Shown: positions 2,414 to 53,169 of the stretch, one piece after another
How positions within the stretch are numbered: the stretch's first letter is position 1
Layout: each line of letters opens with the position of its first letter
Source: a virus
Taxonomy: Duplodnaviria; Caudoviricetes
Length of the DNA stretch: 56,669 nucleotides
Virus record (IMG/VR): IMGVR_UViG_3300008113_000379
Span: 1-56,669 of that record
Direction: 5' to 3' (one strand)
Notes under the pieces: generated by a model
Databases searched by the model: none
What the model was told of the DNA's origin: nothing
Seen by the model: the letters and a program-made list of their open reading frames with translations, nothing else
Position numbers and translations under genes: made by a program

Positions 2414-2426
2414 GGCTAAATACTAT

Positions 2427-2543
2427 ATGAACTATATTGAGTGGATAGAAAATACTTGGTTATATTTATTGCTTATGCTATGGTTCTCCGTCGTAGGATT
2501 CAGTTTAGGCCTATTTATAGGGTTTGCGGTTATCCTATTATAG
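2427..2543 (+). CDS. 38 aa membrane peptide (not in ORF track)
   Basis: MNYIEWIENTWLYLLLMLWFSVVGFSLGLFIGFAVILL; TAAATA 4 nt upstream. Confidence 0.5.
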   Translation: MNYIEWIENTWLYLLLMLWFSVVGFSLGLFIGFAVILL

Positions 2544-2580
2544 TGTTATTCTGATAGCATCCTGCTACAATAAATATTCT

Positions 2581-3393
2581 ATGCGTAAAATTTTAATATC
2601 TTTATTATTCCTACCTTTAGTCTGTTTTGCACATCCTAATAGCGTAGTGTACAATGTAACAAATGATACCGTATTACATGGATCTTTGTACTGTGAAGAA
2701 GTTAGCATTGCTAGTATAAGCAAGTTAATGACTGTATACACAGTATTACAATATAATCAAAACATGGATGAGAAACTTACTGTCACTGGTAACAAGGTTG
2801 TAAATACTAAGTTACGCAAAGGAATGATCCTTGCTCGACAAGAATTGATTAATTTGGCGTTGGTCAGTAGTGACAACTTAGCCGCAATAACTCTGGCAGA
2901 AAATTTTCCAGGGGGAATGAATCATTTCATATATCATATGAATAACAATTCAAAAACTTTAGGTATGCATCAAACTGGATTTGTTGAACCGACTGGACTT
3001 AGCCCAATGAATCATAGCACAGTGGGTGATATAATAAAACTAACCAAAGCAGTAAGCGAATACACTATAGTACAGCACGCCGCACAAACACAACGTGTAG
3101 TATCACCAGTTGAACTATCAAAAAATAACAAAAAAACTAAAAAGAAAAAGAAAAGAAAAGCAGTCAAAGAACCTAAGGCACAAGTTGTTGCTGGTAATTC
3201 CACTAGTCGTTACTTTGGTCATGAAGGATTGATAACTATAAAGACTGGCTTTACAAATGCCGCAGGGTTTTGTATAACTATGCTATTGTATTCTAATAAT
3301 CAATTGTATAACATAACTGTATTAGGTGCACGAACAAAACAAGAACGTGAAAAATTAGTTAAACAAAGTTTAGCTAAAATTTATAACACATAA
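2581..3393 (+). CDS. D-Ala-D-Ala carboxy/endopeptidase, peptidase S11 (PBP5/PBP7-like)
   Basis: Signal peptide; SISK (SxxK), SDN and KTG motifs; Lys-rich insertion. Confidence 0.9.
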   Translation: MRKILISLLFLPLVCFAHPNSVVYNVTNDTVLHGSLYCEEVSIASISKLMTVYTVLQYNQNMDEKLTVTGNKVVNTKLRKGMILARQELINLALVSSDNLAAITLAENFPGGMNHFIYHMNNNSKTLGMHQTGFVEPTGLSPMNHSTVGDIIKLTKAVSEYTIVQHAAQTQRVVSPVELSKNNKKTKKKKKRKAVKEPKAQVVAGNSTSRYFGHEGLITIKTGFTNAAGFCITMLLYSNNQLYNITVLGARTKQEREKLVKQSLAKIYNT

Positions 3394-3428
3394 TATTAGC
3401 ATTTTATGTGTAATGTATAAATACACAT

Positions 3429-3893
3429 ATGCTACATTTTATCAAAGACCTAACAGACAAACTACTAGAGTTCATCAAGGATGACCCTGTACGTCCTGAA
3501 ATACCAACTGACTTTAGAGTAAGTGACGGTAGAATGGTAGCCGCATTGGTTGATGAAGAAAAACCAGATGCAATGGTTTGTGTTAGTTTCCATGATTTTG
3601 TTCCTGAAAATACAAACGATTTAAAGACTACCGCAGTAGTACCTACAACCGCAGTGTTCTACACAATTTGGAGCTACAAGAGTGGCAAAGGACAACAGTT
3701 ATTGATTGAGGCAGTAAAGGGAATCCAGCGTGATTATCCTAGTGTTACTAGATTTGTTACATTAAGCCCTAAGACAGAAGTGGCCAGACGTTTTCATTTG
3801 CGTAATGGTGCAATAGTTTTTCGTGAAAATCTGGACACTATAAATTATGAGTATGTAAAGCCAGAGCAAGAAAATATCGATCCCACTAAATAA
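3429..3893 (+). CDS. conserved phage protein, possible GNAT-like fold
   Basis: DDPVRP, FYTIWSY..GKG and FHLRNGA motifs. Confidence 0.55.
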   Translation: MLHFIKDLTDKLLEFIKDDPVRPEIPTDFRVSDGRMVAALVDEEKPDAMVCVSFHDFVPENTNDLKTTAVVPTTAVFYTIWSYKSGKGQQLLIEAVKGIQRDYPSVTRFVTLSPKTEVARRFHLRNGAIVFRENLDTINYEYVKPEQENIDPTK

Positions 3894-3896
3894 AGT

Positions 3897-4337
3897 GTGG
3901 ACATTAGATACTTTTATCAAACAAATCAACATAGTTACAACCGCGAAGCTATCATAGATTCGTTTGCCAAAGCCATATCAAAAGCAATTGAGTTGCCGGA
4001 AATACTAGAAGTCTGTTTATATGACTTAGGTGAGAGTGTTTACGGTGGTATAGATTTGTATCGCATCAATAGGATTGGCCTACACTATAACATACCTCTC
4101 GACTCACTACCAAAAATATTAGCGCATGAATTAGTACATGTACATCAAAAACACAAAGGTTATTTGAAGATAACACGTGACCACAAATGCTATTGGCATG
4201 GAATTTTCGTAACAAAAAAATTACCGGATGAAATGACGTATGAGGAGTATATGAATTTACCTTGGGAATATGATGCATATACCAGACAAACAAAAGTACT
4301 ACAACAGGCAATGGATATACTAGAACAAGGTATTTGA
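3897..4337 (+). CDS. HExxH zinc metallopeptidase-like protein
   Basis: AHELVHVHQ plus downstream PWEYDAY. Confidence 0.7.
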   Translation: MDIRYFYQTNQHSYNREAIIDSFAKAISKAIELPEILEVCLYDLGESVYGGIDLYRINRIGLHYNIPLDSLPKILAHELVHVHQKHKGYLKITRDHKCYWHGIFVTKKLPDEMTYEEYMNLPWEYDAYTRQTKVLQQAMDILEQGI

Positions 4338-4387
4338 CAATAAATCGGTTTTCCTAACTTGACTAATAATCAGTTTGGGTTTATAAT
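4334..4387 (+). promoter_or_regulatory. truncated early promoter followed by a complete one
   Basis: TTGACAATAAATCGGTTT with no -10, then TTGACT-17nt-TATAAT (4359-4387). Confidence 0.7.
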
Positions 4388-4394
4388 TGTGGTT

Positions 4395-4916
4395 ATGAAA
4401 ACAGTAACAGAACACCTCAAAGAACGTCACCTTAATGTTGACTTACATCTTCCAATGGTCGATGAAGTTGAACGTGTTGCTACTTTTTATTTATACAACC
4501 TTAGCGGTCAATTGGTTGGATATCAACAATACAGACCTGAGGGTGACAAGAAGCCCAACAACAATCCTAAGCTAGGAAAATACTACACATACCGCAAGCA
4601 ACCTACACTAGCGGTTTGGGGTGTGGAAAGTTTGTTTTTAAGCCCCAATGTCGTGTTTGTGTGTGAGGGTCTATTTGATGCGGCCAGACTTACTGAGCGT
4701 GGTTTTAGTGCGTTAGCAGTGCTATCAAACAACCCTAGTCCCGACTTACGCAACTGGCTTACTTGTCTTAATAGAAAAGTAGTAGCCGTTTGTGACAATG
4801 ATGTTGCCGGTCGTAAGTTAGCAAAATTCGGTGATGTAGTACTTTTTACTGAAGAAAAGGATCTTGGTGATAGCAGTGATGAATATGTTACAAAAGTATT
4901 ACAAATGCACTGTTGA
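4395..4916 (+). CDS. small Toprim-domain (primase-like) protein
   Basis: VCEGLFDA, CDND.AG and KDLGD Toprim motifs; no zinc-binding domain. Confidence 0.75.
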   Translation: MKTVTEHLKERHLNVDLHLPMVDEVERVATFYLYNLSGQLVGYQQYRPEGDKKPNNNPKLGKYYTYRKQPTLAVWGVESLFLSPNVVFVCEGLFDAARLTERGFSALAVLSNNPSPDLRNWLTCLNRKVVAVCDNDVAGRKLAKFGDVVLFTEEKDLGDSSDEYVTKVLQMHC

Positions 4917-4941
4917 CAATAAATCAAATTGGGTATACAAT
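4913..4941 (+). promoter_or_regulatory. early promoter (repeat family)
   Basis: TTGACAATAAATCAAATTGGGTATACAAT. Confidence 0.85.
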
Positions 4942-4970
4942 AGCATCTTATTCACTTGAAAGGGCCAATT

Positions 4971-5189
4971 ATGTCTTACGATATTGATATGTTTGTGAAC
5001 ACTAACAAAGCGTACATCACTTTTGAGGACCAGTCTGATGAAGATGAATCTCAATCTCAATTTGAGAAACTTGTTAACTTTGATAAAGTTAATACAGAAG
5101 CATACCCTGTGCTTGTCTACGAAATGAATACTAAAGCAGTAGCTTGGTATGACATAGAAATGTTCATGGGATTTGCAAAAGTAGACTAA
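4971..5189 (+). CDS. hypothetical acidic protein
   Basis: ORF directly after a promoter. Confidence 0.6.
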   Translation: MSYDIDMFVNTNKAYITFEDQSDEDESQSQFEKLVNFDKVNTEAYPVLVYEMNTKAVAWYDIEMFMGFAKVD

Positions 5190-5194
5190 AAGTG

Positions 5195-5237
5195 TTATAT
5201 ACCCAATCTTGACAATAAATCAGATTGGGTATATAAT
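5195..5237 (+). promoter_or_regulatory. early promoter inside a perfect 15-bp inverted repeat
   Basis: TTATATACCCAATCT-tgacaataaatc-AGATTGGGTATATAA; -35 at 5209, -10 at 5232. Confidence 0.85.
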
Positions 5238-5267
5238 GCATTTATCAATTCACTAAAGGAGCAATTC

Positions 5268-5591
5268 ATGTTTGAAAAAGAAACTGAACACAAATCTGCT
5301 GGTAAATTTGCTTGGTTCGCTGAACGTGATGCACGTATGCGTAGTGCAGTAAATAGTTCTCTTTTTTCTGATAGTCAAAAACTTAGGGCCGAGCAAGTCA
5401 AATTGGGCCTCGAACTTGTCTACAATGCTGATAAATTTTATATTGAATTTCGTAAGAAATTTATTAGTGTTAAAGTACAAAAGCCTAGGGTCAAAGATAG
5501 AAAGACATTGGACCTACTTGAACAAGATTACAAGAGTGAAGGTTACACAAAAGTATTAACCAAACAGGGTTTTACATACAGAATTTCTTAA
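5268..5591 (+). CDS. hypothetical protein
   Basis: AAGGAG RBS; follows a promoter. Confidence 0.7.
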   Translation: MFEKETEHKSAGKFAWFAERDARMRSAVNSSLFSDSQKLRAEQVKLGLELVYNADKFYIEFRKKFISVKVQKPRVKDRKTLDLLEQDYKSEGYTKVLTKQGFTYRIS

Positions 5592-5594
5592 TAA

Positions 5595-5673
5595 AAATGA
5601 ATACTTAAGTATTCATTTGTGTGTCAGGTGCTCTAGGACCAATTCTATCGTTGGCCTCAAACTCTGACACACA
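5595..5673. repeat. 24-bp perfect palindrome plus an adjacent nested stem-loop
   Basis: AAATGAATACTTAAGTATTCATTT (5595-5618); TGTGTGTCAG 5618-5627 / CTGACACACA 5664-5673 enclosing AGG-CCAA..TTGG-CCT. Confidence 0.75.
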
Positions 5674-5692
5674 CTCAAAGAAAACAAAAAGG

Positions 5693-5721
5693 TTGACGAT
5701 AAATCACTTTGGGTATATAAT
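5693..5721 (+). promoter_or_regulatory. early promoter (repeat family)
   Basis: TTGACGATAAATCACTTTGGGTATATAAT. Confidence 0.85.
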
Positions 5722-5727
5722 ACTTAC

Positions 5728-6066
5728 ATGAACTCAAAAATCAACCGCAAACGTAGAACAGACCGCAATCAAGTCATCTACTACATTCAAGACACTGTAA
5801 CACTTGAGTACTACATTGGTTTGACTGCTGTTTGTTTTGCAGGTAATGTTCGTAAGACACTTACCCGTCGTATGCAAAAGCATATGCAACGTGCTATGAC
5901 TGAGAACAAAGATTGGGGTTTGTCACGTGCTTTGCGTGAACGAGGTGCAGAGCGTTTTGTATTCGGTGTTGTTGAGGTAGTGAGAGGCAAGCGTCCTGCT
6001 CATAGCCGCGAGACTGAATTGATTAACACATTGCAACCAGCATTAAACACATTTGGAGTAAAATGA
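5728..6066 (+). CDS. GIY-YIG nuclease-like protein
   Basis: VIY..YYIG, R..KH, conserved E and LN. Confidence 0.75.
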   Translation: MNSKINRKRRTDRNQVIYYIQDTVTLEYYIGLTAVCFAGNVRKTLTRRMQKHMQRAMTENKDWGLSRALRERGAERFVFGVVEVVRGKRPAHSRETELINTLQPALNTFGVK

Positions 6067-15730: not shown

Positions 15731-16474
15731 TTAGAATGGTACAGTAGAAGTTTGCGCTACTGAGTTGTTGTTTGTGACAGTTTGCGTACCTGATGTATCT
15801 GTAGTTACAGCCGCACCCAGCATCAAATACTGAGTGTTAGCCAGACTAGTTAATGGTGCTGAAGGTGCTATGACTGTGCTACTGGTACTGTTATACACAG
15901 CCGACCCAACAGTGATTCTAAGGTTAGTTATAAAGCCAGGCCAATATCCTCCATAAAATCTTCCTATCCAGTTACAAGGACCTGAGTAATCAAGATTGTT
16001 AACCTGTGTTCCACCACTGACACTAGAACCGCCTGCGGCACTGGTAGCACGATTACAAGTCACATAAGCACTGGTATTGACAAAAGTGCCTACCCACATT
16101 GTTTCTACTTGGGTACCGGCATTACGATTTAGTATGATATACTGCCACTGGTTGACTTGCAAGGTGTTACTAGGAAAAGTATAAGTTCTAGCACCGCCGC
16201 CACCGTATCTGTCTAGGGTAAATGACTGTGCATCATTGTTGAATAAACTTAGAGCATTAAACTGGTCTGTGGCAACCAATCCTCTTTGAGCAGTATAATC
16301 CACGTTGTTATAGAACCAACCTTCTATGGTATAAGCACTGGTACCTAATGTAGTGCCCGGACTTAAACTGAGATATCTTGCACCGGCTGGATCAAACTGT
16401 AGGCTACCGGCAAGAGGTGTATAAACAACACTACTTGCCACATTATTCATCATAGCCATCATTGCGCCAGCCAT
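15731..16474 (-). CDS. LamG/ConA-like lectin-domain virion protein (putative adhesin)
   Basis: YTIEGWFY, QWQYIILNR, GFITNLRIT. Confidence 0.7.
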   Translation of the reverse strand: MAGAMMAMMNNVASSVVYTPLAGSLQFDPAGARYLSLSPGTTLGTSAYTIEGWFYNNVDYTAQRGLVATDQFNALSLFNNDAQSFTLDRYGGGGARTYTFPSNTLQVNQWQYIILNRNAGTQVETMWVGTFVNTSAYVTCNRATSAAGGSSVSGGTQVNNLDYSGPCNWIGRFYGGYWPGFITNLRITVGSAVYNSTSSTVIAPSAPLTSLANTQYLMLGAAVTTDTSGTQTVTNNNSVAQTSTVPF

Positions 16475-18690
16475 TACGATACTCCTGTACCGTTAATGAA
16501 CCAAGTATCACTTGCTACTTTCATTAGTGTTGCCATACCATAAGTACCAACTACACGATTAGCCGCTGATGAGTTACCTCCCATGTACAGTGTTACACCG
16601 CTAGCCGCATTGACTAAAATGTTACCTGCTGCCTGAACCACGATACTAATTGCTGTACCGGTAGCAAATGCCACGTTAGCGTTATCAGGAATTATTAATG
16701 TTAGGTTGCCCGCAGTAGTTGAGTAGTAATGCTTACCTGCATCAGTTAGTGCGAGTGTAGCATTAGCCGCCGAAACTTGTGGAATGTTCAAGTAACCGAT
16801 TGCAAAACCGTTTGTGTTGCCACTGATATTACCTGCAGTTGAAATGTTGCCGCCAGTAATATTACCAGGACTTGTGAATGAGCCGTCTTGTGCAAATGTC
16901 CAAGTATTAGCAGTAGTACCACCTGTACCAACTTGCACGGTAACGTTACCAGCACGATTCTGTACCAAATCAGTCTGAGCAGTGCCCAATACAAGTTGTG
17001 AACCATCTAAATCGCCACCATAAATTGTTTTGGCACCACTTAATCTTACTTGGCCGCCTGGTAAAAATTGTGTAGCATTACCGCCTGTGTTTGCTTCAAT
17101 AATACCTGCCGCACTATTTAATGAAATTCTAGTATCATATGTACTAGCGTTCTGAACAATATTCGGAGAGAACACAATATTTGCAAATGCGTTACCAAAA
17201 TAACGTGCGGTGTTACCTAAATCCATTGTTGCATTAGCACTAGGTACTAATGCATTGTTAGCATGTGCATAGCGGAACTTTTCATTTGCTGTTAAGAACC
17301 CACCTGTAGCAAATACAATATCACGATATCCAGTTTTACCTACATTACCGGTTGCTATGACTAGATTACCACCTATGAATCCTGTGTTGTCTTGACCACC
17401 CTGAACAAATAAATATCCATCATTTTTATCAGTTATTGTATAGTTGGCATCGTTAAATCCACCACTGGTGAATCCTAAGTCTGCCCATGCCTCAGATTCA
17501 GTACCATTGTCACCATATGCTACATAGTCACTACTACCTGTATTAGAACTGTTAATTAAAGCTATTTGAAGATATTGATTACCAATATTTTTGCCTACTA
17601 TAACAGGATTAGTTAAACTGGTATTTGCCGCACCGTTGCCTGCAAAAAGTATTGATTGTGCATACATATTACCTGTAGAATGAAATCCTTTAGCATGTAC
17701 ATTGGAATTACTACCAATGCCACCTTCAACTCTTATTGCACCTGATGTGGGGTTAGTACTATCTGTTGTGTTACCTACAACAAGTTGACTGTTGAGATTC
17801 ATGGTGATACCACCATTAGATGTAATTGTACCAGTAACAGTTAAACTACTTAATGTACCAACACTTGTAATATTAGCTTGACTTGCACCAGTAACTGTAG
17901 TTGCATAGTTAGCTAGGTTTGATGTACCTACTGCACCTGTTACGTTGCCACCACTTACACTATATGCGGTACCTGAATAAGTAGCATAGTTTGCATTTGC
18001 TACAGTACCAGAAATATTGGCTGCATTTAAGTTATTAAGATTAGCGCCTGATCCAAGAAACAATGATGCAGAAATGTTACCGCTAGATTCTAAACTTACT
18101 AGATTACCAACACTTGTTATGTTTGGTTGCGCGGCATTGATAACATTACCTGCAGTAGTTGCAGTACCTGCACTTGTTGCATATGTTGCATTTGCTACCG
18201 TACCAGTTACGTTAGCACCGGGCACTGCTGTGACTCCAGCCGCGTTACCAAACAAACGTGTACCAGTTATATTGTTACCTGTTATATTTCCAGTAAATGT
18301 AGGCAGATAATTTGCTACGTTGCTGTTACTGTACGTACCTGGAAAGACCCACGGCGATCCGTTAGAATATTTTAAATTGTCTGTCTTTACGTTTCCTACG
18401 ATAGCATTACCTGTTATAACATTGCCGTCAACTGTTAAAGTATCTGTTGCTAAGTCATAAGTAAATCCTATGTCTCCAACTAGTCTATCACCTATGTTGA
18501 ATTGAACTTCTGTGCTATCTCCACCGGCAACATCTTGATTAATGATGTTGGTAGTAAATTCTGTTTTGTTGGTTATGTATATGCTTGCATTACCTACTAA
18601 TGGTATCTGTTGTGCATTTTCTGGATAAATGGTTGCCAACGATGAATCGGCTCCAGTATTAATAAGTGTTTGGGCTGGCGTCTGCGGCAT
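16474..18690 (-). CDS. tail-fibre-like structural protein
   Basis: G/N/T/A-rich repeats (AQPNITSVG); C-terminal AIGYLNIPQ..TWFINGTG domain; late promoter. Confidence 0.75.
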   Translation of the reverse strand: MPQTPAQTLINTGADSSLATIYPENAQQIPLVGNASIYITNKTEFTTNIINQDVAGGDSTEVQFNIGDRLVGDIGFTYDLATDTLTVDGNVITGNAIVGNVKTDNLKYSNGSPWVFPGTYSNSNVANYLPTFTGNITGNNITGTRLFGNAAGVTAVPGANVTGTVANATYATSAGTATTAGNVINAAQPNITSVGNLVSLESSGNISASLFLGSGANLNNLNAANISGTVANANYATYSGTAYSVSGGNVTGAVGTSNLANYATTVTGASQANITSVGTLSSLTVTGTITSNGGITMNLNSQLVVGNTTDSTNPTSGAIRVEGGIGSNSNVHAKGFHSTGNMYAQSILFAGNGAANTSLTNPVIVGKNIGNQYLQIALINSSNTGSSDYVAYGDNGTESEAWADLGFTSGGFNDANYTITDKNDGYLFVQGGQDNTGFIGGNLVIATGNVGKTGYRDIVFATGGFLTANEKFRYAHANNALVPSANATMDLGNTARYFGNAFANIVFSPNIVQNASTYDTRISLNSAAGIIEANTGGNATQFLPGGQVRLSGAKTIYGGDLDGSQLVLGTAQTDLVQNRAGNVTVQVGTGGTTANTWTFAQDGSFTSPGNITGGNISTAGNISGNTNGFAIGYLNIPQVSAANATLALTDAGKHYYSTTAGNLTLIIPDNANVAFATGTAISIVVQAAGNILVNAASGVTLYMGGNSSAANRVVGTYGMATLMKVASDTWFINGTGVS

Positions 18691-18735
18691 TTTTTACTCC
18701 TCTATAGAGTATTTATCAAAAATACCGTTAATTTA

Positions 18736-19482
18736 TTATGGCCAAGTAGCTATGCCAACACGTGTCCAAGTATTGGCAGCAATACATACGTAAAGATAAC
18801 TGCTATCAAATGCTATCTGACCAGCCTGACCAGTAGCACTATTAGATGCGGGAGCACTACTACTTACTGTAGTAGCCCATTGCATATTACCTGCGCCGTC
18901 ACTAGTTATGAATTGTCCTACATTTCCACCTGTATTAGGTAATGCCCATGCTAGATATGTTGTAGGATTTGCAATATTAGCAGGTGCCGCTAAAGCTACA
19001 AATTTATTAGCATTATCTGTAGTTAACATTATGTTGAATGCACCTTGTGTTAACGTTACTGAATTGGCAGCAAAAACATCATTGACGTTTGCATCACCTG
19101 TACCAAGTGACAATGAATTTCCAGTAATAACATTTAGTGTAGTAGTGCCGGTGATAGTAGCATTACCTGTCAATGACAGATTGGCAGTAGAATAATTAAA
19201 GGTTAAATTAGCATTAGAACCAAATGAACTAGCATTATTAAATTGTATTTCTCTATTGCTTCCGCCAGGTGTACTAGCGTCATTAGTCCAACTTAATACT
19301 CCAGATCCGTTAGTTTTTAATATCTGCCCGTTTGTTCCGCCGGTGATGGTAATGTTACCTACTGCGCCTAAGTTAGCAGTATTTGAGACACTTAGGTTAT
19401 CAATTACTACAGTGTCTGATGATGAAATTTCTTCTATAACTAAACTTGTTGAATTAGCTACTAATGGGTATCTATTTGCCAT
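18736..19482 (-). CDS. fibre-like structural protein
   Basis: GQILKTNGSGVLSW, IQFN; C-terminal GQAGQIAFDSSYLYVC.AANTW.R module. Confidence 0.7.
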   Translation of the reverse strand: MANRYPLVANSTSLVIEEISSSDTVVIDNLSVSNTANLGAVGNITITGGTNGQILKTNGSGVLSWTNDASTPGGSNREIQFNNASSFGSNANLTFNYSTANLSLTGNATITGTTTLNVITGNSLSLGTGDANVNDVFAANSVTLTQGAFNIMLTTDNANKFVALAAPANIANPTTYLAWALPNTGGNVGQFITSDGAGNMQWATTVSSSAPASNSATGQAGQIAFDSSYLYVCIAANTWTRVGIATWP

Positions 19483-19505
19483 TTCTTAATCCTTTACTAT
19501 ATTTA

Positions 19506-20723: not shown

Positions 20724-20748
20724 TATTATTTCCTATTATGTATTTATC

Positions 20749-22798: not shown

Positions 22799-22805
22799 TA
22801 TAGAG

Positions 22806-34470: not shown

Positions 34471-34488
34471 TGGATTAAATATTATACT

Positions 34489-35045: not shown

Positions 35046-35242
35046 TTTTTCCAAAGTATAAAGTTGATATAGTCTTTTTCTGATTCAAAGTAAAACGTAT
35101 ATTTGCCTGGATGAAATCCTGCCATATCTTTTAAATCATAACCCCAATCAGCAACACATTGAGTTTGACACCAATGCATGATGGGTGCAAGCTGGCCAAA
35201 CTTAATATCAATTTCAGTTTTGTACTGTGTATTGGGTGACAT
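35042..35242 (-). CDS. hypothetical protein
   Basis: WC..W..F.FESEKD..F.L motif. Confidence 0.6.
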   Translation of the reverse strand: MSPNTQYKTEIDIKFGQLAPIMHWCQTQCVADWGYDLKDMAGFHPGKYTFYFESEKDYINFILWKK

Positions 35243-35732: not shown

Positions 35733-35974
35733 TTAACGTATTTACAATATTCAATGTGTGTCATACAAACTGATTGTTCACTAAACATACTTAGTACTCT
35801 ATCTTTTATACCAAATCTTTTTTGAAAAGCCACTCCAAAACTTACACCTTTTAACTTTTCAAAAATGTACTCTTTACAGAATATCTCATATTCATCTTTA
35901 CTGATGTGTGTAAAATTATTATCTTTAAACGCATCGCTAGATAACGTAGTCACCATATGTCCAAATGCATTCAT
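35729..35974 (-). CDS. hypothetical protein
   Basis: Coupled ORF; start reassigned to ATG 35974. Confidence 0.55.
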   Translation of the reverse strand: MNAFGHMVTTLSSDAFKDNNFTHISKDEYEIFCKEYIFEKLKGVSFGVAFQKRFGIKDRVLSMFSEQSVCMTHIEYCKYVK

Positions 35975-35975
35975 A

Positions 35976-36515
35976 TCAATCCCAAAGATTACGAAAATAT
36001 TTACCAAACAAATCAAGACCTTCTTGGATACGTTCTTCGTGCAATTTATGACCAACATGGTCATACCAATGTTCATCTGGATTCTTGTCAACCATTTGAT
36101 ATGTTGCTTCTACCTTGCCTGTAATTGGATTTGGAAATGTTTTATCAGTCTTGACCCAATCATATTCACCTCTACCGTGATGATATTTTTCATCATAATC
36201 ACCTTTGGCAACTTGTTCAAAACTCCAAATCATTTTATCAAGTATTTCGTCCCAGCGTTCTGCACCCTTTTTCCATGCATCATCGTGTGTTTCTTTGTAA
36301 AAGTCAAAACTACCCTGCTGTGCATAGTCCTCGCCACCCACGTCATTTACTAAATCGCCGGGTACTCCGTGTTTTGTTGCTTTTAGTTGCACTAAACATG
36401 GATATATAATTTGTGCAAGGGTATTGTCTAAGTTCCAGCTATCCCATGGATCAATTTGTATATTGATTTTTCTACGATAACCTTTCTTAGGCCAGTTTTT
36501 TATATTTACTTTCAT
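35976..36515 (-). CDS. conserved hypothetical phage protein
   Basis: D.WDSW.LD.TLA.II.P.L..LK..KHG.P; GL.LFGKYF.NLWD. Confidence 0.75.
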   Translation of the reverse strand: MKVNIKNWPKKGYRRKINIQIDPWDSWNLDNTLAQIIYPCLVQLKATKHGVPGDLVNDVGGEDYAQQGSFDFYKETHDDAWKKGAERWDEILDKMIWSFEQVAKGDYDEKYHHGRGEYDWVKTDKTFPNPITGKVEATYQMVDKNPDEHWYDHVGHKLHEERIQEGLDLFGKYFRNLWD

Positions 36516-36880
36516 GCCAAGACTTCTTTAATCTTCCCATCAATTATCATAAAAACTTTTTTATCGTGTATTACAGCCGCAAACTGTATGTTTGTTTCTT
36601 TTTGAAATTTCTCTACCAGTTCATCAAGTGTATTACCTTGACATATAAATTTTTTGGTCTCATGTTCATACATAAACAATGAATTATCAATTGATTCTAT
36701 ATGTAACTTAGTTATATGATTGCTAATTTCTTTAGCTTTTAAATTGACAATTTCTTTCTCTAAATCAATCTCATGTGATTCTGCTAATTTTTGCAATAGT
36801 TTGGACACTCTGAAGATGGCAAATATCTCGCCTAGAAACCAACCAAAACCAAAGACTAAAATTAAAATTACAATTTCCAT
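36512..36880 (-). CDS. membrane-anchored hypothetical protein
   Basis: N-terminal TM; FICQG.TLDEL. Confidence 0.65.
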   Translation of the reverse strand: MEIVILILVFGFGWFLGEIFAIFRVSKLLQKLAESHEIDLEKEIVNLKAKEISNHITKLHIESIDNSLFMYEHETKKFICQGNTLDELVEKFQKETNIQFAAVIHDKKVFMIIDGKIKEVLA

Positions 36881-36884
36881 AGTT

Positions 36885-37166
36885 TTATTTATTAATAGTT
36901 AACGCAGACCAGACCTTGAGTTTTTCAAATTTATTCTTTTTTGCTTCGGCGATGCCCTCAGGAGTAACTCCAACATTCAAATCAGTAAGTAATTCCACCA
37001 TAGCAAACAAGTCACCAATTTCTTCTTCAAGCATATTGATATTAGTTCTTTCTTTACCCGGTTTCATTTGGTCAGGACCAAATCTAAAGCATTTACTAAC
37101 CGCTTGTGTAACTTCTGCACACTCCTCTTGTAGGATTAAAAGTACTTCTCTTGTATCATCATTCAT
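36885..37166 (-). CDS. MazG-like NTP pyrophosphohydrolase
   Basis: QEECAEV.QA.SK..RFG; LEEEIGDL. Confidence 0.8.
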   Translation of the reverse strand: MNDDTREVLLILQEECAEVTQAVSKCFRFGPDQMKPGKERTNINMLEEEIGDLFAMVELLTDLNVGVTPEGIAEAKKNKFEKLKVWSALTINK

Positions 37167-42854: not shown

Positions 42855-43997
42855 ATGAGATACACTGAATTTGCAAGACCTTTGGAAGAAGATGGGGAAA
42901 CTCCCATTTCTAGGGATGATGTCGTTTCTGCATTGCAGGACTTGGGCCACGAGGATCCTAAAATCAATGGTAACAAAATCAATATTTTGGTACAGATTCC
43001 GGACGGTGAAAAGAAGAATGACTTTAGAAAGCAAGTTCTTAACGATGTTCTTATTGCACTAAAAAGAAAACTACCAAAAGTAGGTGCAACATATACCCCT
43101 GATAAAAGTATAAGCAGTTTGGGTGGAATCATATTCAACAATAGTCCAGTTTCAGTTGCAGTAAAAGATTCTGGAAGTCAAGGAGAAAATAGTGCTGGTG
43201 TAGCAAACGAAATTGAACTAGCAAGTATTATCCAAAGTGTCGTAGAAAAATACGGGTCAGCAAATGTAACATTTGTAGATCCTAGAGGTAAAAAATTAAC
43301 TATTAAAAACTGCATCTCAGTTGATGTTGCAGGACGTGATACTACAGAACGTAAAAAGGCTGATGTTGTATTACGTAGTGAACGTGGGAATTTACCTATC
43401 AGTATTAAAGAACTTAATGCTGATATGTGGGAAAGTGCTGATAGTTTGTTTGGTGAGAAGGCTAAACAAATAATTAAAAAACTAATAGATGACGGAACTA
43501 TAGAATTAGAGACTATCGGCGAAAAGAGAAACAAACGTACAGGAGAATCTATTCCTGTCTATAAACTAAGCAAAGAAATTGTAGTAGAACCTACGCCGGA
43601 AGAAGCATTAAATGCAATATTCGGTAGTGACATTAGTCCTAAAGGTGGTGTAGTTATACAAACATTCAAGCCGCAACATTTCACACAAGATGGTGATAAT
43701 ATCAAAGTCGATGCACATGCTATTATTGCCAAGAAGGAAGATATCCCGGAGAGCCATTTAATGGTTTGGTTGATTCGTAATGATAGCACTAGAAATAATC
43801 CATTACCCGGTTTACGTACACTTGGTGTAACGTTAACACGCGGTATAGGCAAGAAGGGTAACAAGGATGTTATTCTCGTTGATGTGAATGGTAATGTAAT
43901 TGACAATCCTAACAAATCAGTTGCTAAATCTCCTAAGAAAGAGAAAAAACCTGAATTAGAACCGGGTAGTGAAGAAGCTACACGCACTAAGCGTTAA
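42855..43997 (+). CDS. PD-(D/E)xK nuclease-like protein with CTS-like N-terminus
   Basis: G..NE, KKADVVL..PISIK; MRYTEF start; TAAATA at 42800. Confidence 0.5.
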
Positions 43998-44488
43998 CAC
44001 TTACTAAAATTTTGATGTTTAAACCAACGGCGCTGTCCATGCGCCGTTTTTAATGAGATATTGAATTCTGCTAATTTATCTCTGAATCTAAAAAATGTAG
44101 GGCCATGACTCATTAAGCAATCTTGTCCGTTATCATTGCGTAATGGACCGTCTATATCCCATTGATGTTGATGGCACATTTCATGTGCTAGTGTAGTTAC
44201 AAACCACTGTGGACAAAACCATTTATCCATTAGTTGTATCTCACAGTAACTTCCCGTACGAAACATTGTGGTTTCTCCCATACACATTCCCCAATATTTC
44301 CTACATCTAGCTGCCAAATATATATTTGGCATTTTGAGTTCATTATTAAACACATTACAGTTCAATAACTCATACACATGTCTAGCTTCATTTTTGGATG
44401 GTCTGTACACTAACCGTTTTTGCTCAGTTATCGTGGGAAGAGGAATTTCCATCATTTCCTCAAGTGAATAGATAGACACTAAACTCAT
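43994..44488 (-). CDS. SprT-like zinc metalloprotease
   Basis: LN..VFNNEL, TLAHEMCH..Q, HG..F. Confidence 0.85.
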   Translation of the reverse strand: MSLVSIYSLEEMMEIPLPTITEQKRLVYRPSKNEARHVYELLNCNVFNNELKMPNIYLAARCRKYWGMCMGETTMFRTGSYCEIQLMDKWFCPQWFVTTLAHEMCHQHQWDIDGPLRNDNGQDCLMSHGPTFFRFRDKLAEFNISLKTAHGQRRWFKHQNFSKC

Positions 44489-44555
44489 ACATATATTTAT
44501 CAGAAAAATATCCATTTGGTGATTCCAATCTAAATAAATCGTTAAGGAGAAAAAC

Positions 44556-48425: not shown

Positions 48426-48647
48426 TTAATACATTTTTGGGGGAAGTTGCTGGTCACGCAAATACTTTTTCCAACGGCGCTTAGCCTGACCATGGGCTAA
48501 TTTTCTTTTTACTGTGGGTTTTACAAATTCTTGACGGTCACGGACCTCTTGAAGAAGGCCAGTCTCACTTACCTTTTTCTTTAGTTTACGCAATGCTTTT
48601 TCAACGTTTCCGTCATGCACTTGAATTTTTCTTCCTTTTGGCATCAT
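48426..48647 (-). CDS. rpsU: ribosomal protein bS21
   Basis: V..GNVEKALRKLKKKV...GLL.EVR.R.EF.KPT.KRK...A.RR. Confidence 0.9.
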   Translation of the reverse strand: MMPKGRKIQVHDGNVEKALRKLKKKVSETGLLQEVRDRQEFVKPTVKRKLAHGQAKRRWKKYLRDQQLPPKMY

Positions 48648-49843
48648 ATGATAGGTTTAGGGTTAATTACTTGTTCCCTATCTATATTTAGTAGTTTCAC
48701 CTTGTTCTTGCGGTATTTTTTAGTATGATACATATGACACATCAATACACGTTCAATCTCAGTGTGTAATCCACGTGCGCCTGTTTTTAACGTTAATGTG
48801 TTCTCAGCAATTTGATCCAGTGCTTCTGTAGTGAATGTTAGTTCAATTTCGTCTAATTTTAACAAATATTTGTACTGACTGACGTAATTGTTCTTAACGT
48901 CTGTTAAAATTTTGATTAGTTGTTCTTTGTTTAATTCTTGGATACTGACTGTAGTAGTAAATCTACCTATAAATTCAGGAATCATTCCATATTTGGTCAG
49001 GTCATCTGGACTTACTTTAGTTAAATCACCTTCAACTTTGTTATCCTTGATATCGGCACCGAATCCAATGCTGGTTCCATTAGTACGTTTTGCGATAACA
49101 TCTTTGAGACCCACGAATGCACCACCGGCAATGAATAGAATGTTTTTTGTATCAATTTCATTCATGTCATTACCAGGATGTTTTCTTCCGCCCTGACTAG
49201 AAATTCTACATATAGTACCTTCAACTAACTTGAGTAACGCTTGTTGTACACCTTCACCTGATACATCACGTGTGATACTGGTGCTCTCACCTTTACGTGC
49301 AATTTTATCAATTTCATCAATAAAAATTATTCCACGTTCCGCAAGTTGTTTGTCACCATTGGCAGCATTTACTAGCATATTAATCATTGATTCAACGTCA
49401 TCACCAACATACCCTGCCTCAGTTAAACTTGTGGCATCAGCAACAATAAAGGGCACTTTGAGATACTTAGCCGCAGTCTTAGCAAGCAATGTTTTACCAC
49501 TACCTGTGGGGCCTACAATAAGTACGTTGCCCTTTTGAATCTCTAAGTCTTTGGGAGGATTGTTGATCCTTTTATAGTGATTGGCAATCGCCACACTAAG
49601 AACCATTTTAGCATCATCTTGACCAATTACATGCTGGTCAAGATAATCTTTAATTGATTCAGGATCAAACTCGGGTTGAATGTCATCATTATGTTCTGAT
49701 ATTTCATCAATAATTAAGTCTTGGCATAACTCTACGCAATCACTGCATATAGCTACTGTTCCTCCTACGACTAATTTTTTGACGCCATCTTTGTGTGCCC
49801 CACAAAAACTGCAATGATTGATTTGTTTAGTTTCTTCGGTCAT
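48644..49843 (-). CDS. clpX: ATP-dependent Clp protease ATP-binding subunit ClpX
   Basis: CSFC/C.DC zinc finger, [33 protein letters not shown] loop. Confidence 0.97.
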
Positions 49844-49868
49844 TAATATACTTATTCTTGTTCGTAGT

Positions 49869-50873
49869 TTAGCTAAAATTATAGCACGAACCTGTAGTAT
49901 ATGTCAACTCGACTTTTCTTGCTTTTCCTAGTTTGGTATAATTAGGATTAGTGGGATGAACTTTTATCATAACTTGACCCTCAAAACCCTCGTTACCTCG
50001 GATGATAAGCGGATCTACTTTGTTGAGAGGCATCATATATAATGGTTCTGAACATGAACTAAACAACATTTTACCGTTATCGTCATACACACTGGACATG
50101 ATATAGATTGAACCTCTGATTTTGCTCTTAATCAAGTCTGCACGTATACCATCATTGAAATAGTATCTATCAGTTTGACCTATGAGCCATGCCTTAGGAT
50201 CTTTACTTTGAATGAATACTCTTTCTTGGTAGATAGAGTTTGACTTTGAATCTTCTAATTTCTTGAGAATTTCATTCAATGCAACAAGATAGTTATAGTT
50301 CCAAAAGATACTATAGTCAGCCATGATAATAGCATTTCTATCCTTGTCAGTTAAAAACTTTACATCACCTTTTGTAAGTGTAAAACCTTTACTAGACAGG
50401 TCATTCAATACACTAGCCAAAACATTGTCACCACTTTCTCTTTCCTTATTATAGGTCTGAAATTGTGCTGTCATCTTAGAACCATTTAATGGTTCTTGGT
50501 CTTTGAATTTACCTAATACACGTTCATGTATCTTACTGCTTTTGACATTAATGTCCATTACCAGTGATACACCAAAGTCTGTAGTAGCATTGCTGATAAT
50601 TTTATAATCATCAATATAACCTGCACTATGCTTTGCAATCTCGTCACGAATAAGTTGATTACTTTTTACTTCGGCATCACTGATAACAATCGAACCTACA
50701 ATAATTTCAATTGCAGTACGAAAACCATTTGTTTTTGCATCTTCAAAATTTTTACCTGTACCGATTACACGAACATATCCTGGCTCAGTTAAGCCAGAAA
50801 AACTCTTACCGGTAGGCTTATCAGATGCACATGCTGATAATGCCAGCATGAGCATAGGTAATAAGTATCTCAT
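49869..50873 (-). CDS. lipoprotein
   Basis: Lipobox LSAC; G.G.N..DAK..A..AIE..G. Confidence 0.7.
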   Translation of the reverse strand: MRYLLPMLMLALSACASDKPTGKSFSGLTEPGYVRVIGTGKNFEDAKTNGFRTAIEIIVGSIVISDAEVKSNQLIRDEIAKHSAGYIDDYKIISNATTDFGVSLVMDINVKSSKIHERVLGKFKDQEPLNGSKMTAQFQTYNKERESGDNVLASVLNDLSSKGFTLTKGDVKFLTDKDRNAIIMADYSIFWNYNYLVALNEILKKLEDSKSNSIYQERVFIQSKDPKAWLIGQTDRYYFNDGIRADLIKSKIRGSIYIMSSVYDDNGKMLFSSCSEPLYMMPLNKVDPLIIRGNEGFEGQVMIKVHPTNPNYTKLGKARKVELTYTTGSCYNFS

Positions 50874-51496
50874 TTCATTTTTCTAGCAAGTTGATTACGT
50901 GCATCTTCGCTGTCTAAATCCCAGCGAATAGTTACCGCAACTTCTTGCACACCAACTACTTCTTCTTTCACTTTAATAAATCCTTTAAGAATGGATCGTG
51001 AAGATGTTTGAATAGATTCGGTCAATTGAACAACCGTATCGTTGGTGTTTTCTCTGAGACTAACTTTGCTAGCCTCTTTATCAGTCATTTCAACTGCCTT
51101 GTCATCAGCCTTACCTGCATTAACTTTGTCAGTGGCTTTCTCAATGTTTTTAGCAATAGTGTTATTCACACGATTGGTAGTAATTTCTTTGTTTAAGAAT
51201 TCACTTATATTAGCGTTGGCTCGCATTTCGGCTCTAGTCAATGCATTACGCATGTTATTAGTAGTGTTACCAAAACTTGGTGCTGTGCCAGTAGCTTCAA
51301 TTGCAACAATTTTGCAATCACGACTAAAACTGAACCAAGCACATTTAGTTTCAATCTTAATATTCTCACTTACAAAAGAAGTGGAAAGTTTTTGATTAGC
51401 AATTGGCTCGTTACTATTAGTACCGTTGCCCATTTTCATACTAGAACATGCGCCTAGTGTGAATGCTACTGCTAGAAAAGTGAGTGTGTGTTTCAT
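50870..51496 (-). CDS. LPP20-like lipoprotein
   Basis: Lipobox LGAC; ATG.A..A..RAE.RA...I.EF. Confidence 0.7.
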   Translation of the reverse strand: MKHTLTFLAVAFTLGACSSMKMGNGTNSNEPIANQKLSTSFVSENIKIETKCAWFSFSRDCKIVAIEATGTAPSFGNTTNNMRNALTRAEMRANANISEFLNKEITTNRVNNTIAKNIEKATDKVNAGKADDKAVEMTDKEASKVSLRENTNDTVVQLTESIQTSSRSILKGFIKVKEEVVGVQEVAVTIRWDLDSEDARNQLARKMK

Positions 51497-51529
51497 AAGT
51501 TTCCCTATAAGTTGTTGAACAATGAAGAT

Positions 51530-51558
51530 AGTATAACAGAATATGGATTATTCTGCAA
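51530..51558 (-). promoter_or_regulatory. sigma70-type promoter
   Basis: TTGCAG-17nt-TATACT. Confidence 0.5.
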
Positions 51559-51567
51559 TTATTTTGG

Positions 51568-53136
51568 TTAACTATTTTGAGATTTTATGAATTTTTCCAC
51601 TGCATCTTGCTCATTTATAGTAAGCAATTCCGGGTCATATTCGCCCGTAGCGATTCGGTCAACTAAAAATTGTAAGTATTCTGAATTTAAATGGGTGTCC
51701 GTAATTTCTTTATTGGTTTTTATCCATCTTGCCCCATTATGCTTATACACTTGATTTGGAATCACATCCACCCTCACAAAGGTGTCACCTACGTGAGGAT
51801 TAGAAGGAAATTCTGTTCCAAAATTGGTTCTATTTTTTCTAATACTATCTTCTTCAAGAAAGAATTCTGGGTGTATGTCTCTTAGTACACGAATATGCAT
51901 ACTCTTACCCTCAAACTCTACATAGTCCCCGTCTCCCTTTTTATAAGGTAATTTTTTTGATTTTTGGTTTGGTTCTTCTGCAAACTCAGGACCCGTTTGT
52001 AGCCATGTGCCGTCTGCAAGTTTGATTCCTTCAAAATTAGGCGAATCTCCCTTCACTGGTTCTGGATCTACTGTATCTGCCATTTGTTCTTCAATTGTGG
52101 GCTGAGACTTCTTTTCTAATTCTTTAAAGACTTCTTCCTCTTCTTTAGTAACTTCAACAACTTCTACTGGTTTTATATCGCTAAACTTATTGGCTACGTA
52201 AGGCTCAAATTCTTCCGGTGGTTTAGCAGAAGGGAAGGGCCAGGATGCAATAGGTTCACTATCTAATGCTTGTATTTCTTCTTCGGTGAATGGTCTTGTA
52301 TCTTCTTCTTTAGGTGGGATGATAGCCATAGCATTTTTATCATCTTCAATTGGTTGTTCTTTATCCCAATCTTTACTTTGGTTAGCCGCAATTACTAGCA
52401 TAATAGCAAGTGGATCAAAAACAATAACAAGTAATATAATTACCCAACGTACTGCACGTTCTAATAAATTAGCATCCGGATCATCACCGTAGATGAATGC
52501 CGCAATGTATTTAATAGGTCCTACTTCGGCTTCCACCTTGCGTAATTCACTAGCAATAGGCGCTCGTTCTTCATTTAATTTAGCAATAATATTTTGTGCT
52601 TTGGCTATATCATTTTGTAATGCAGTTCGTTCTTTTTGTTGTTGTCTGCGGATTTGAACAGCACGTTCTGCACCCCTATCACTATCAGTACGACCCAACA
52701 TTTGGTCTACTTGTGCATCCATTTGTGTTAGTGCTTTTCTACTTGTCTCTATATTATCTCGCTCAGTCTTTATCTTCTCGTCAAGTAAAGCAACTTTAGC
52801 CGCAACATCACCAGTAGGTACACCTTGATCCAAATGAGCCTTACTTAAGAATCCAAAGATACCCATACTTGTTAGTAGTGCAAGTGCAACAACTGCAGGT
52901 ACTAGGTACATTTTCATTATCCAACCACACCGATCCCAGTACTTGCGTAACCAAACTGTAGTTGTAATTTTTGCTAACTCCAATGCACCGCCCATAATGA
53001 TAATGGGGATAACCGCTCCTGCAAAGATAGCGGTTAGACCAATGATACTATACCAAGCGGCTATTGAACTTAGGGTTAATGCTACTAGTAATGTAGCATT
53101 GCTAAATGTGAATATTGATAAAAATCGTGAGAACAT
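51568..53136 (-). CDS. multi-TM coiled-coil membrane protein
   Basis: Three N-terminal TMs, coiled coil, EVGPIKYIA, IVFDPLA TM, acidic tail. Confidence 0.75.
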   Translation of the reverse strand: MFSRFLSIFTFSNATLLVALTLSSIAAWYSIIGLTAIFAGAVIPIIIMGGALELAKITTTVWLRKYWDRCGWIMKMYLVPAVVALALLTSMGIFGFLSKAHLDQGVPTGDVAAKVALLDEKIKTERDNIETSRKALTQMDAQVDQMLGRTDSDRGAERAVQIRRQQQKERTALQNDIAKAQNIIAKLNEERAPIASELRKVEAEVGPIKYIAAFIYGDDPDANLLERAVRWVIILLVIVFDPLAIMLVIAANQSKDWDKEQPIEDDKNAMAIIPPKEEDTRPFTEEEIQALDSEPIASWPFPSAKPPEEFEPYVANKFSDIKPVEVVEVTKEEEEVFKELEKKSQPTIEEQMADTVDPEPVKGDSPNFEGIKLADGTWLQTGPEFAEEPNQKSKKLPYKKGDGDYVEFEGKSMHIRVLRDIHPEFFLEEDSIRKNRTNFGTEFPSNPHVGDTFVRVDVIPNQVYKHNGARWIKTNKEITDTHLNSEYLQFLVDRIATGEYDPELLTINEQDAVEKFIKSQNS

Positions 53137-53169
53137 TTGAATATTTAGTGTGGTTACGTGGTCAATGTA

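Follow-up and report, generated by a model that had tools for sequence, protein, structure and literature searches.

T4-type late promoter boxes abut start codons in a lineage of giant freshwater phages, a geometry that predicts leaderless late mRNAs

Gene content and relatives of the window

The 56,669-bp viral record IMGVR_UViG_3300008113_000379, which was analysed as a whole and is referred to here as the window (GC 38%), carries TAAATA boxes 4-7 nucleotides (nt) before start codons that lack a Shine-Dalgarno (SD) sequence. Scanning 104 open reading frames (ORFs) of the window against Pfam and PHROG revealed that this phage fragment is rich in host-like auxiliary genes. It encodes ClpX, ClpP, ClpS, DnaK and Hsp20, and also IscU, two IscA proteins and an Fe/Mn superoxide dismutase. 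Other enzymes are a family-2 glycosyltransferase, two metallophosphoesterases, an NT5C nucleotidase, a dCMP deaminase, MazG and an S11 D-Ala-D-Ala carboxypeptidase, and there are several fibre-like proteins, one of them 1542 amino acids (aa) long. Capsid, terminase and sigma genes were not found by these scans in the 56.7-kb window. A 522-aa protein of the window, orf522, has relatives at 59 IMG/VR loci, five of which lie on contigs of 171-365 kb (G001 to G005, called the relatives below; together with the window, the clade). A completeness of 100% is assigned to two of these contigs, G001 (359,563 bp) and G002 (364,554 bp). Because the orf522 relatives sit on contigs of this size, the window is a piece of a giant phage, and it belongs to a T4-related freshwater phage of ~300-365 kb.

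The DnaK of the window shares 65-81% identity (best aligned segment) with the DnaK of the 80 best-matching GTDB species genomes, nearly all of which carry Burkholderiales or Betaproteobacteria in their titles (Limnohabitans, Polynucleobacter and Rhodoferax among them). Judged by these DnaK matches, the host is likely a freshwater betaproteobacterium. Positions 29000-35000 of the window had no megablast match in the phage collection, and a tblastn search of the same collection with DnaK left the phage unplaced, with mostly host-like or contaminant records returned.

TAAATA boxes next to start codons

Twelve pairs of a TAAATA box and a start codon had been named in an earlier note on this DNA, and all twelve are present, with 4-7 nt between box and start. 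On the plus strand, box 2417-2422 lies 4 nt before the ATG at 2427 (2417..2429) of a 38-codon hydrophobic ORF encoding a mini-protein, and is itself preceded by a terminator-like hairpin and a T-run. The gene of the S11 D-Ala-D-Ala carboxypeptidase (2571..3393), a protein with an N-terminal signal peptide, has box 2571-2576 at a gap of 4 nt from ATG 2581 and no SD; the gap is likewise 4 in G001 and G005. Box 3418-3423 (gtATAAATAc; gap 5, ATG 3429; 3418..3893) precedes the gene of a 154-aa protein, which also has no SD and for which an orthologue was found in 0/5 relatives. At 3887-3892 the box overlaps the TAA stop codon of the upstream gene and stands 4 nt before a GTG at 3897 (3887..3899); because of this overlap and the GTG start, 3897 is a doubtful member of the class. 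The remaining plus-strand boxes precede the genes of the 1542-aa fn3/RCC1/laminin-G fibre-like protein (box 29830-29835, gap 6, ATG 29842; 29830..34470) and of a 100-aa protein (box 34476-34481, gap 7, ATG 34489; 34476..34791), whose G003 homologue has a gap of 4.

On the minus strand, the genes of the Fe/Mn superoxide dismutase (box 22806-22811, gap 7, ATG 22798; 22247..22811) and of a metallophosphoesterase (box 24418-24423, gap 7, ATG 24410; 23577..24423) both lack an SD. Their gaps in the relatives are 7, 7 and 6, with none in G002, and 7, 7 and 5, with none in G003, respectively. The NT5C-type 5'-nucleotidase gene (box 26602-26607, gap 5, ATG 26596; 26048..26607) keeps the gap of 5 in G001 and G003 and has none in G005. 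The other three starts belong to a 47-codon hydrophobic membrane mini-protein (box 29354-29359, tcTAAATA, gap 5, ATG 29348; 29205..29359), to an SprT-like protein (box 44494-44499, gap 5, ATG 44488; 43994..44499; gaps of 5 in G001 and 4 in G005) and to orf522, which is a membrane coiled-coil protein (box 53142-53147, gap 5, ATG 53136; 51568..53175). In-frame ATGs lie 27 and 69 nt upstream of 44488, and the box-adjacent start is backed by two relatives. An extended -10 element (gtgtTATAAT) lies ~22 nt upstream of the orf522 box, so that this gene has dual promoters. Two minus-strand sites go beyond the earlier list. One precedes the gene of a 122-aa protein, orf122 (box 36886-36891, gap 5, ATG 36880; 36512..36891), and is kept with a gap of 5 in two relatives, G001 and G005. 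The other precedes the dCMP deaminase gene (TGTAAATA, box 35739-35744, gap 6, ATG 35732; 35214..35744), is found in 0/5 relatives and is possibly due to chance or specific to the window. The ATG at 26645 (gap 3) was considered as a further leaderless start and ruled out, because the relatives begin at the SD-led ATG 26678.

The box-adjacent genes of the window mostly encode enzymes and membrane proteins, with one giant fibre. An SD-like 4-mer (GGAG, AGGA or GAGG at -17 to -4) was present at 0/10 of the box-adjacent starts in the window and at 1/118 in the clade, and no in-frame SD-led start follows within ~30 codons downstream of them. All listed box-adjacent starts are ATG except 3897, and the hexamer scan described below counted ATG only. 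GTG and TTG starts are at noise level, both behind the box (16 and 9 of 1534 sites) and behind SDs (26 and 20 of 2167). A test for avoidance of GTG and TTG has no power here, since the clade scarcely uses these codons even behind SDs.

The position of the box is conserved between orthologues. The box-adjacent start is kept in three of the four relatives with a match for the superoxide dismutase, in three of four for the phosphoesterase and in two of three for the nucleotidase. Counting the window, the orthologue gaps are 4, 4 and 4 for the S11 peptidase, 5, 5 and 5 for orf122 and 5, 5 and 4 for the SprT-like protein, and for orf522 the gap of 5 in the window is matched by gaps of 5, 5, 4, 7 and 6 in 5/5 relatives. 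The sequence of the spacer varies between orthologues while the gap stays. A survey of the region upstream of orf522 covered 57 of the 59 IMG/VR loci (two matches to the C-terminus only were excluded; four have no in-frame ATG) and yielded 28 distinct upstream sequences; the box stands 4-7 nt before the ATG in 19 of them. Protein-level conservation begins at the ATG, and the codons of these N-terminal residues show synonymous changes, as in orf522 (for example MFSR/MFSK and MYD). In the window, orf522 (51568-53136, minus strand) is a single intact ORF; its related loci include L026-L054, and at ~25 of the 59 the best tblastn segment ends near residue 260-330. The A-runs of the window gene are limited to two short ones (A7 and A6), located further downstream.

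Enrichment and specificity of the box

Each of the 4096 hexamers was scanned, on both strands and without gene calls, for occurrences ending 3-7 nt before the first ATG of an ORF of at least 50 codons. In the window, 11 of the 65 TAAATA sites were in this position compared to 0.5 expected (background 0.79%; binomial P 4.5e-12). This placed TAAATA second of 4096, with only the SD hexamer AAGGAG (14/23) ahead of it. The 14 permutations of the same composition gave 0-5 hits each, and those with 4-5 were shifted readings of the same site. Overall, TAAATA is rarer in the window than chance would have it, with 65 sites vs 90 +/- 9 in shuffles.

The same scan ranked TAAATA first in G001 (35/449 sites), third in G005 (19/178), second in G003 (22/335), eighth in G004 (10/226) and fourth in G002 (22/281), compared to rank 463 in the control, T4 (1/225). 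When the window and the five relatives were pooled, 118 of 1534 TAAATA sites had a gap of 4-7 nt, which is 17.9x background and the highest value of any hexamer. Seventeen of the 18 single-base variants of the box were at 0.2-2.1x background in the pooled clade, and TAAGTA was the sole enriched variant (19/1220, 3.6x). A TAAGTA box had been described before clpX, and it is indeed there, 5 nt from the ATG at 49843. The specificity of every position of the box in the variant scan suggests an element read by a protein and not a consequence of AT-richness. The box-adjacent pattern is real and far above chance.

Resemblance to T4 late promoters

Boxes next to starts (n=117) and boxes 15-26 nt before SD-led starts (n=122) share an extended context. 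An A stands at box-1 in 63% and 69%, respectively, and both gene-proximal classes also have G/A at box-2, C/T after the box and a G-poor stretch of ~7 nt downstream. The other 1173 TAAATA sites are without this context, with A at box-1 in 17%. The consensus of the late box is (G/A)ATAAATA(C/T), and it is the sole promoter element. After the box, the SD-led class has G at 0.02-0.16 in positions 1-7 and C at no more than 0.18 from position 2 (0.36 at position 1), compared to 0.11-0.18 for G and 0.17-0.24 for C in the same positions of the 1173 non-gene sites.

T4 late promoters are reported to consist of a TATA box of 8 bp that occupies the -10 position, roughly one helical turn before the transcription start (PMC2988020). 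Its first base, an A in some promoters, is -13, the DNA downstream is AT-rich, and gp55 reads the box, TATAAATA, together with gp33 and the clamp gp45 (PMC2988020). A box of the form NATAAATA is known from T4-like cyanophages (PMC2984593). The clade resembles T4 in the core TAAATA, which would lie at the -10 position, in the AT-rich DNA just downstream and in the presence of promoters on both strands. Virion genes follow the box in the complete relative G001: the portal gene at a gap of 7 nt and the large terminase gene at 5 nt, two baseplate wedge genes at 17 and 18 nt, the tail tube and head-tail adaptor genes at 18 nt each, and the genes of several virion structural proteins. In the window, it precedes fibre-like genes. 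A gp55-family sigma factor is found in the relatives as well, with T4 gp55 matching 4/5 of them (E 1.7e-6 to 1.6e-5), and the gp55-like ORF of G001 matches phrog_12791, 'sigma factor for late transcription', at E 1e-70 and phrog_234 at E 2.8e-20. By its sequence and context, the box is a T4-type late promoter.

Box-adjacent starts are not the only late starts. In the window, ~11-13 boxes abut a start and ~6-7 boxes lie 16-36 nt before an SD-led start (18690, 19482, 20723, 29411, 44556 and 26678). On the minus strand, box 18710-18715 is separated by 19 nt with AGGAG from ATG 18690 of a 738-aa fibre-like protein (16474..18715), box 19500-19505 by 17 nt with AAGGA from ATG 19482 (18736..19505) and box 20741-20746 by 17 nt with AGGA from ATG 20723 (19506..20746); the last has gaps of 17, 16 and 17 in three relatives. 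On the plus strand, box 29389-29394 stands 16 nt, with AGGAG, before ATG 29411 (29389..29614), and two overlapping boxes at 26636 and 26640 stand 32-36 nt before the SD-led ATG 26678 of a DUF4337 protein (26636..27229). Across the clade, 118 boxes are box-adjacent vs ~120 SD-led. The description of the late genes as 'systematically leaderless' in the earlier note was thus too strong, as about half of the late promoters are box-adjacent. Also at odds with the wording of that note, several box-adjacent genes encode enzymes (superoxide dismutase, phosphoesterase, nucleotidase, S11 peptidase) and not classical late functions. What stands of the proposed two translation regimes is that there are two kinds of start region at the sequence level, one with leaderless geometry; the division is not systematic. 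A split by abundance, with box-adjacent genes being low-copy and SD-led genes abundant, was considered and is not clean: in G001 the portal and terminase genes are box-adjacent and the tail tube gene is SD-led (the major capsid gene was not located), and low-copy baseplate genes are SD-led too.

Geometry of the start region and predicted leaderless mRNAs

Pooled over the clade, the numbers of boxes at gaps of 0 to 12 nt are 3, 5, 6, 1, 39, 49, 11, 19, 3, 0, 3, 3 and 2. The distribution is bimodal, with 118 boxes at 4-7 nt (without SD), 11 at 8-12 nt and 120 at 16-21 nt (with SD). A leader longer than a few bases and too short to hold an SD appears to be avoided.

The base before the start codon also differs between the classes. 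T is at -1 in 79 of 118 box-adjacent vs 235 of 803 SD-led starts (odds ratio 4.9), and the difference has the same direction in all six genomes. By gap class, T(-1) amounts to 56%, 65%, 91% and 79% at gaps of 4, 5, 6 and 7 nt. A is at -1 in 50% of SD-led starts vs 11% of box-adjacent starts. The excess of T fits the described preference of RNA polymerase, on the non-template strand, for a pyrimidine at -1 followed by a purine at +1 (PMC5730371). On our reading of the T4 numbering, the box spans -13 to -6 and +1 would fall on the sixth base downstream of it. As the modal gap is 5 nt, the A of the ATG would then be +1. The box-to-start distance within the clade fits, because TA steps in the SD-led class peak there: steps with the A at positions 5 and 7 after the box reach 0.28 and 0.27, vs ~0.10 at other TAAATA sites.

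Box position, specificity, conservation, absence of an SD and T(-1) together establish a sequence pattern, and from it we infer that the box fires, where transcription begins and how the mRNA is translated. In the proposed mechanism, (G/A)ATAAATA(C/T) would be the only element of a gp55-type promoter from which the late genes are transcribed. A box placed ~16-25 nt before the ATG would yield a leader of ~10-20 nt that holds an SD. With the box 4-7 nt before the ATG, RNA polymerase would start on the A of the ATG (T at -1, A at +1), and the mRNA would have no leader, or one of 1-2 nt at most. Such a leaderless mRNA would be initiated by direct recognition of its 5'-terminal AUG, as is done by 70S ribosomes in E. 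coli. We consider it quite probable that the box-adjacent late mRNAs of the clade are leaderless in this way.

Several points weigh against this prediction. The late sigma gene was not found in the window, a 56.7-kb fragment. T4 gp45 protein matched 0/5 relatives and phrog_223 matched 1/5 at E 5.9e-4; phrog_254 (gp33) matched 1/5 at E 0.0013. Both gp33 and gp45 are small, fast-evolving proteins that may elude such searches. No public RNA run was listed for positions 20700-30000 of the window, and three metatranscriptome runs share next to no words with it. The distance from box to transcription start is taken from T4 and from the indirect TA-step signal. Nine of the 28 distinct orf522 upstream regions have no box at a gap of 4-7 nt, and the box at 35739 before the dCMP deaminase gene occurs in the window only. 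The six clade genomes are related to each other, so the pooled P values exaggerate independence. Lastly, the host-type promoters of the genes starting at 53136 and of clpX would give a leadered mRNA without an SD.

Alternative explanations

The last point leads to an alternative in which the box-adjacent genes are mainly translated from longer transcripts started upstream, whether from host-type or from other late promoters, with the ribosome loading without an SD on an A/U-rich, unstructured region. TAAATA would then be a weak or silent promoter, or the A/U-rich loading site itself. The gene at 53136 and clpX (49843) have TGnTATAAT or TTGACA-N18-TATAAT promoters in which 34 nt without an SD separate the -10 element from the ATG, the element itself being ~22 nt upstream of the box. 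Since these promoters would give leadered, SD-less mRNA, both genes are evidently translatable without an SD even with a leader. Long co-directional gene blocks make read-through likely. With starts chosen heuristically, 32 of 103 called genes lack both a box and an SD-like 4-mer, and SD-less initiation thus seems to be common in this phage. The two dual-promoter genes and these 32 of 103 make SD-less initiation on leadered RNA a real rival for part of the expression. However, a loading site should tolerate substitutions in the box, and 17/18 variants are not enriched. It would have no need of the extended context that is common to the SD-led late promoters, nor of T at -1, where SD-led starts prefer A, and it would not leave gaps of 8-12 nt empty. 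As the main account of the box-adjacent genes, longer transcripts are unlikely.

A second alternative concerns two translation genes of the window. Both bS21 (PF01165; 59.2 bits vs a cut-off of 27) and IF-1 (PF01176; 77.8 bits vs a cut-off of 30.2) are encoded as the earlier note had said, and it had suggested that they may retune host ribosomes for the leaderless class. The IF-1 gene (24454..24669, minus strand) is SD-led, with TATAAT and AAGGAG upstream, and residues 1-70 of its product align end to end with a solved bacterial IF-1 (E 8.7e-22). The bS21 gene (48426..48647, minus strand) has a start that overlaps the clpX stop codon (ATGA); it is therefore translationally coupled and rides on the clpX message. 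The phage bS21 is divergent but ordinary, scoring ~28-34 bits to solved bacterial bS21 chains, and compared to solved ribosomes it bears no telling likeness to any type, including the anti-SD-sequestering Flavobacterium type. Both genes are present in 5/5 relatives, which form a single lineage.

Co-occurrence was examined in a panel of nine cultured T4-related or giant phages, five of which (Melnitz, Mosig, Vibrio phage 2.275.O, Syn9 and P-SSM2) were tested for IF-1. Among the phages with bS21, the box-adjacent class amounts to 6/241 sites in Mosig, all at a gap of 5 nt, 3/113 in Melnitz and 1/198 in 2.275.O, which also encodes IF-3. Among those without bS21, it amounts to 7/243 in P-SSM2 (IF-1 not found either), 1/170 in S-PM2, 0/132 in Syn9, 0/65 in phiM12, 0/62 in 44RR2.8t and 1/225 in T4. 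IF-1 (PF01176) was found in 0/5 of the panel phages tested outside the clade. Because 2.275.O encodes bS21 and yet has 1/198, bS21 is not sufficient for the class. A small class occurs in the absence of both genes, as in P-SSM2 (7/243). The co-occurrence check, which the earlier note had proposed, thus lends no support to retuning. Within the clade and panel, a strong class, bS21 and IF-1 coincide in this one lineage only. These data argue against a simple dependency on bS21. In the cultured phage 2.275.O (349 kb), the IF-3, bS21 (RpsU3) and ClpS-like genes are adjacent (MG592671 31702-32933, L237).

Published work on the two factors points in both directions. IF1 and IF2 are reported to stimulate leaderless translation in vitro, IF3 to inhibit it at high levels and extra initiator tRNA to enhance it strongly (PMC9031893). 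In E. coli, ribosomes without uS2 and bS21 are reported to favour the leaderless lambda cI mRNA, and bS21 to prop the anti-SD in the exit path (PMC10491246). For Bacteroidetes phages, phage bS21 has been proposed to favour late phage transcripts (PMC9723584). The stimulation by IF1 in vitro is compatible with retuning, while the lambda cI result for bS21 would point the opposite way.

In its full form, the retuning explanation says that phage bS21 and IF-1 alter host ribosomes such that the leaderless late class is preferred over SD-led messages. The window and 5/5 relatives carry both genes and all show the class, none of the panel phages outside the clade has a strong class, with IF-1 in 0/5 of those tested, and the IF-1 gene, being SD-led behind a TATAAT box, could precede the late class. 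The IF1 effect in vitro (PMC9031893) and the bS21 role proposed for Bacteroidetes phages (PMC9723584) are on the same side. Against this, the co-occurrence amounts to one lineage, the bS21-encoding phages 2.275.O and Melnitz have only 1/198 and 3/113, and P-SSM2, with neither gene, has as many box-adjacent sites as Mosig with bS21 (7/243 and 6/241). In addition, E. coli ribosomes without uS2 and bS21 are reported to translate the leaderless lambda cI mRNA better (PMC10491246), and the phage bS21 is an ordinary one with no special likeness to the anti-SD-sequestering Flavobacterium type. The nine-phage panel leaves retuning for the leaderless class unsupported, and we regard it as improbable.

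A broader form of this idea, that the clade runs a dedicated late translation regime, is doubtful to a similar degree. Fusion of the gp55-type box to the AUG would make about half of the late mRNAs leaderless, phage factors would push host ribosomes to 5'-AUG (70S-type) initiation, and late messages would outcompete the SD-led host and early ones. The factors would be extra IF-1, possibly an initiator-like tRNA (C1:A72), and a divergent bS21 that alters the hold on the anti-SD. A C1:A72 mismatch marks the initiator tRNAs of bacteria. The two closest relatives, G001 (353974-354048; L082:13974-14048, minus strand) and G005 (8952-9026), encode a CAT-anticodon tRNA that has this mismatch and is without the three G:C pairs of the anticodon stem. 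G001 has 34 tRNAs and a transfer-messenger RNA; the window has no tRNA.

Chance or artefact, by which an AT-rich hexamer containing a TAA stop would precede mis-called starts in a compact AT-rich genome, is highly implausible: although boxes 3887, 29830 and 36886 overlap an upstream stop codon and three listed starts are weak (GTG 3897 and the small ORFs at 2427 and 29348), the scan used no gene calls and covered all hexamers, TAATAA (1/62), ATAATA (2/71) and TATAAA (2/69) stay well below TAAATA (11/65), T4 is as AT-rich and has 1/225, orthologues with 50-90% protein identity preserve the gap, and the same-composition permutations rule out a stop-codon artefact, so that the controls reject this explanation.

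Other promoters and gene groups of the window

Host-type promoters were also found in the window. Three sigma70-type promoters had been described in which only 6-7 nt separate the -10 box from the ATG (4395, 5728 and 10168), and they are as described; 7315 is a fourth candidate. The ATGs 4395 and 5728 (4359..5730, plus strand) are those of a primase-like and a GIY-YIG gene. The early promoter TTGACAATAAATCAnTTTGGGTATATAAT is strongly conserved and is followed by a leader of ~20 nt with AAGGAG. Its copies at 4913, 5209, 5693, 10833, 11214, 11882, 14037 and 14262 on the plus strand and at 40456, 40893 and 42190 on the minus strand are near-identical over 29 nt, including the spacer, which is far more conservation than a sigma70 promoter requires. 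The spacer of TTGACAATAAATCAnTTTGGGTATATAAT contains ATAAATC, which is like the late box but for the last base.

The clpX gene (48644..49907, minus strand) has a TTGACA-N18-TATAAT promoter from 49907. The 34 nt from its -10 element to the ATG are without an SD and end in TAAGTA-N5-ATG (49843); at least one early-type message is therefore leadered and yet SD-less. The dnaK and hsp20 genes share a conserved box, TCTTGCTT, 4-5 nt upstream of their AAGGAG (46376-46420 and 48321-48365, minus strand), which is kept in 4/4 dnaK and 4/5 hsp20 homologues of the relatives. TCTTGCTT could be a shared regulatory element of the chaperone genes, either part of a promoter or an RNA element. An iron-sulphur assembly set (IscU and two IscA-like proteins; 20749-21726, minus strand) adjoins the genes of a GNAT acetyltransferase and the superoxide dismutase.

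Comparison with known systems

If 5' ends lie at the predicted positions, dozens of genes in T4-related giant lake phages, portal and terminase genes among them in relatives, are expressed as leaderless mRNAs, in a likely host group that otherwise relies on SDs. This would be a new style of expression for the best-studied phage late-transcription system. Gene starts and promoters of uncultured phages could then be recognised by one simple pattern, a box followed after 4-7 nt by an ATG, and the question of why IF-1, bS21 and other translation-initiation genes occur in phages could be put to the test in a concrete setting. No published report of T4-type late promoters fused to start codons was found in the full-text literature, with subscription journals and supplements outside the scope of the search.

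Leaderless mRNAs are known from lambda cI, transcribed from PRM, and mycobacterial transcriptomes are rich in them. The clade resembles these in having a -10-type box fixed a few bases before the AUG, no SD and an mRNA predicted to begin on the A of the AUG. In contrast, the promoter here would be a phage late promoter and not a sigma70 or SigA promoter, and it would serve dozens of phage genes, with portal and terminase among them in a relative. The likely host is a betaproteobacterium, the early genes of the phage have strong SDs, and the transcription start here is a predicted one. AR9 and phiKZ use non-canonical phage RNA polymerases and not a gp55-type sigma factor. They are similar to the clade in being giant phages with a late transcription programme of their own, with promoters mapped; 5' untranslated regions (UTRs) of AR9 are given as 26-491 nt (PMC5312081), and no leaderless transcript of phiKZ is reported to have been detected at the early stage studied (PMC8244752). 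The Bacteroidetes phages with bS21 are likewise large freshwater phages, with a proposed role for the protein in translation selectivity (PMC9723584). The accessible text of that paper does not contain the words leaderless, UTR or promoter, and in the window, unlike there, bS21 is coupled to clpX behind a host-type promoter and the panel gives no clean link between bS21 and box-adjacent starts.

The closest system is T4 itself. Unlike the T4 octamer, the box of the clade has no conserved T at the first position, in which it resembles the cyanophage form NATAAATA, and clear homologues of gp33 and gp45 were not found in the relatives. About half of the gene-proximal boxes in the clade abut the ATG at a gap of 4-7 nt, compared to 1/225 in T4, where the gaps from TATAAATA to the ATG within 60 nt range from 13 to 52 (22 sites). 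Collectively, these comparisons suggest that the arrangement is a variant of the T4-type late promoter in which the box has been fused to the start codon.

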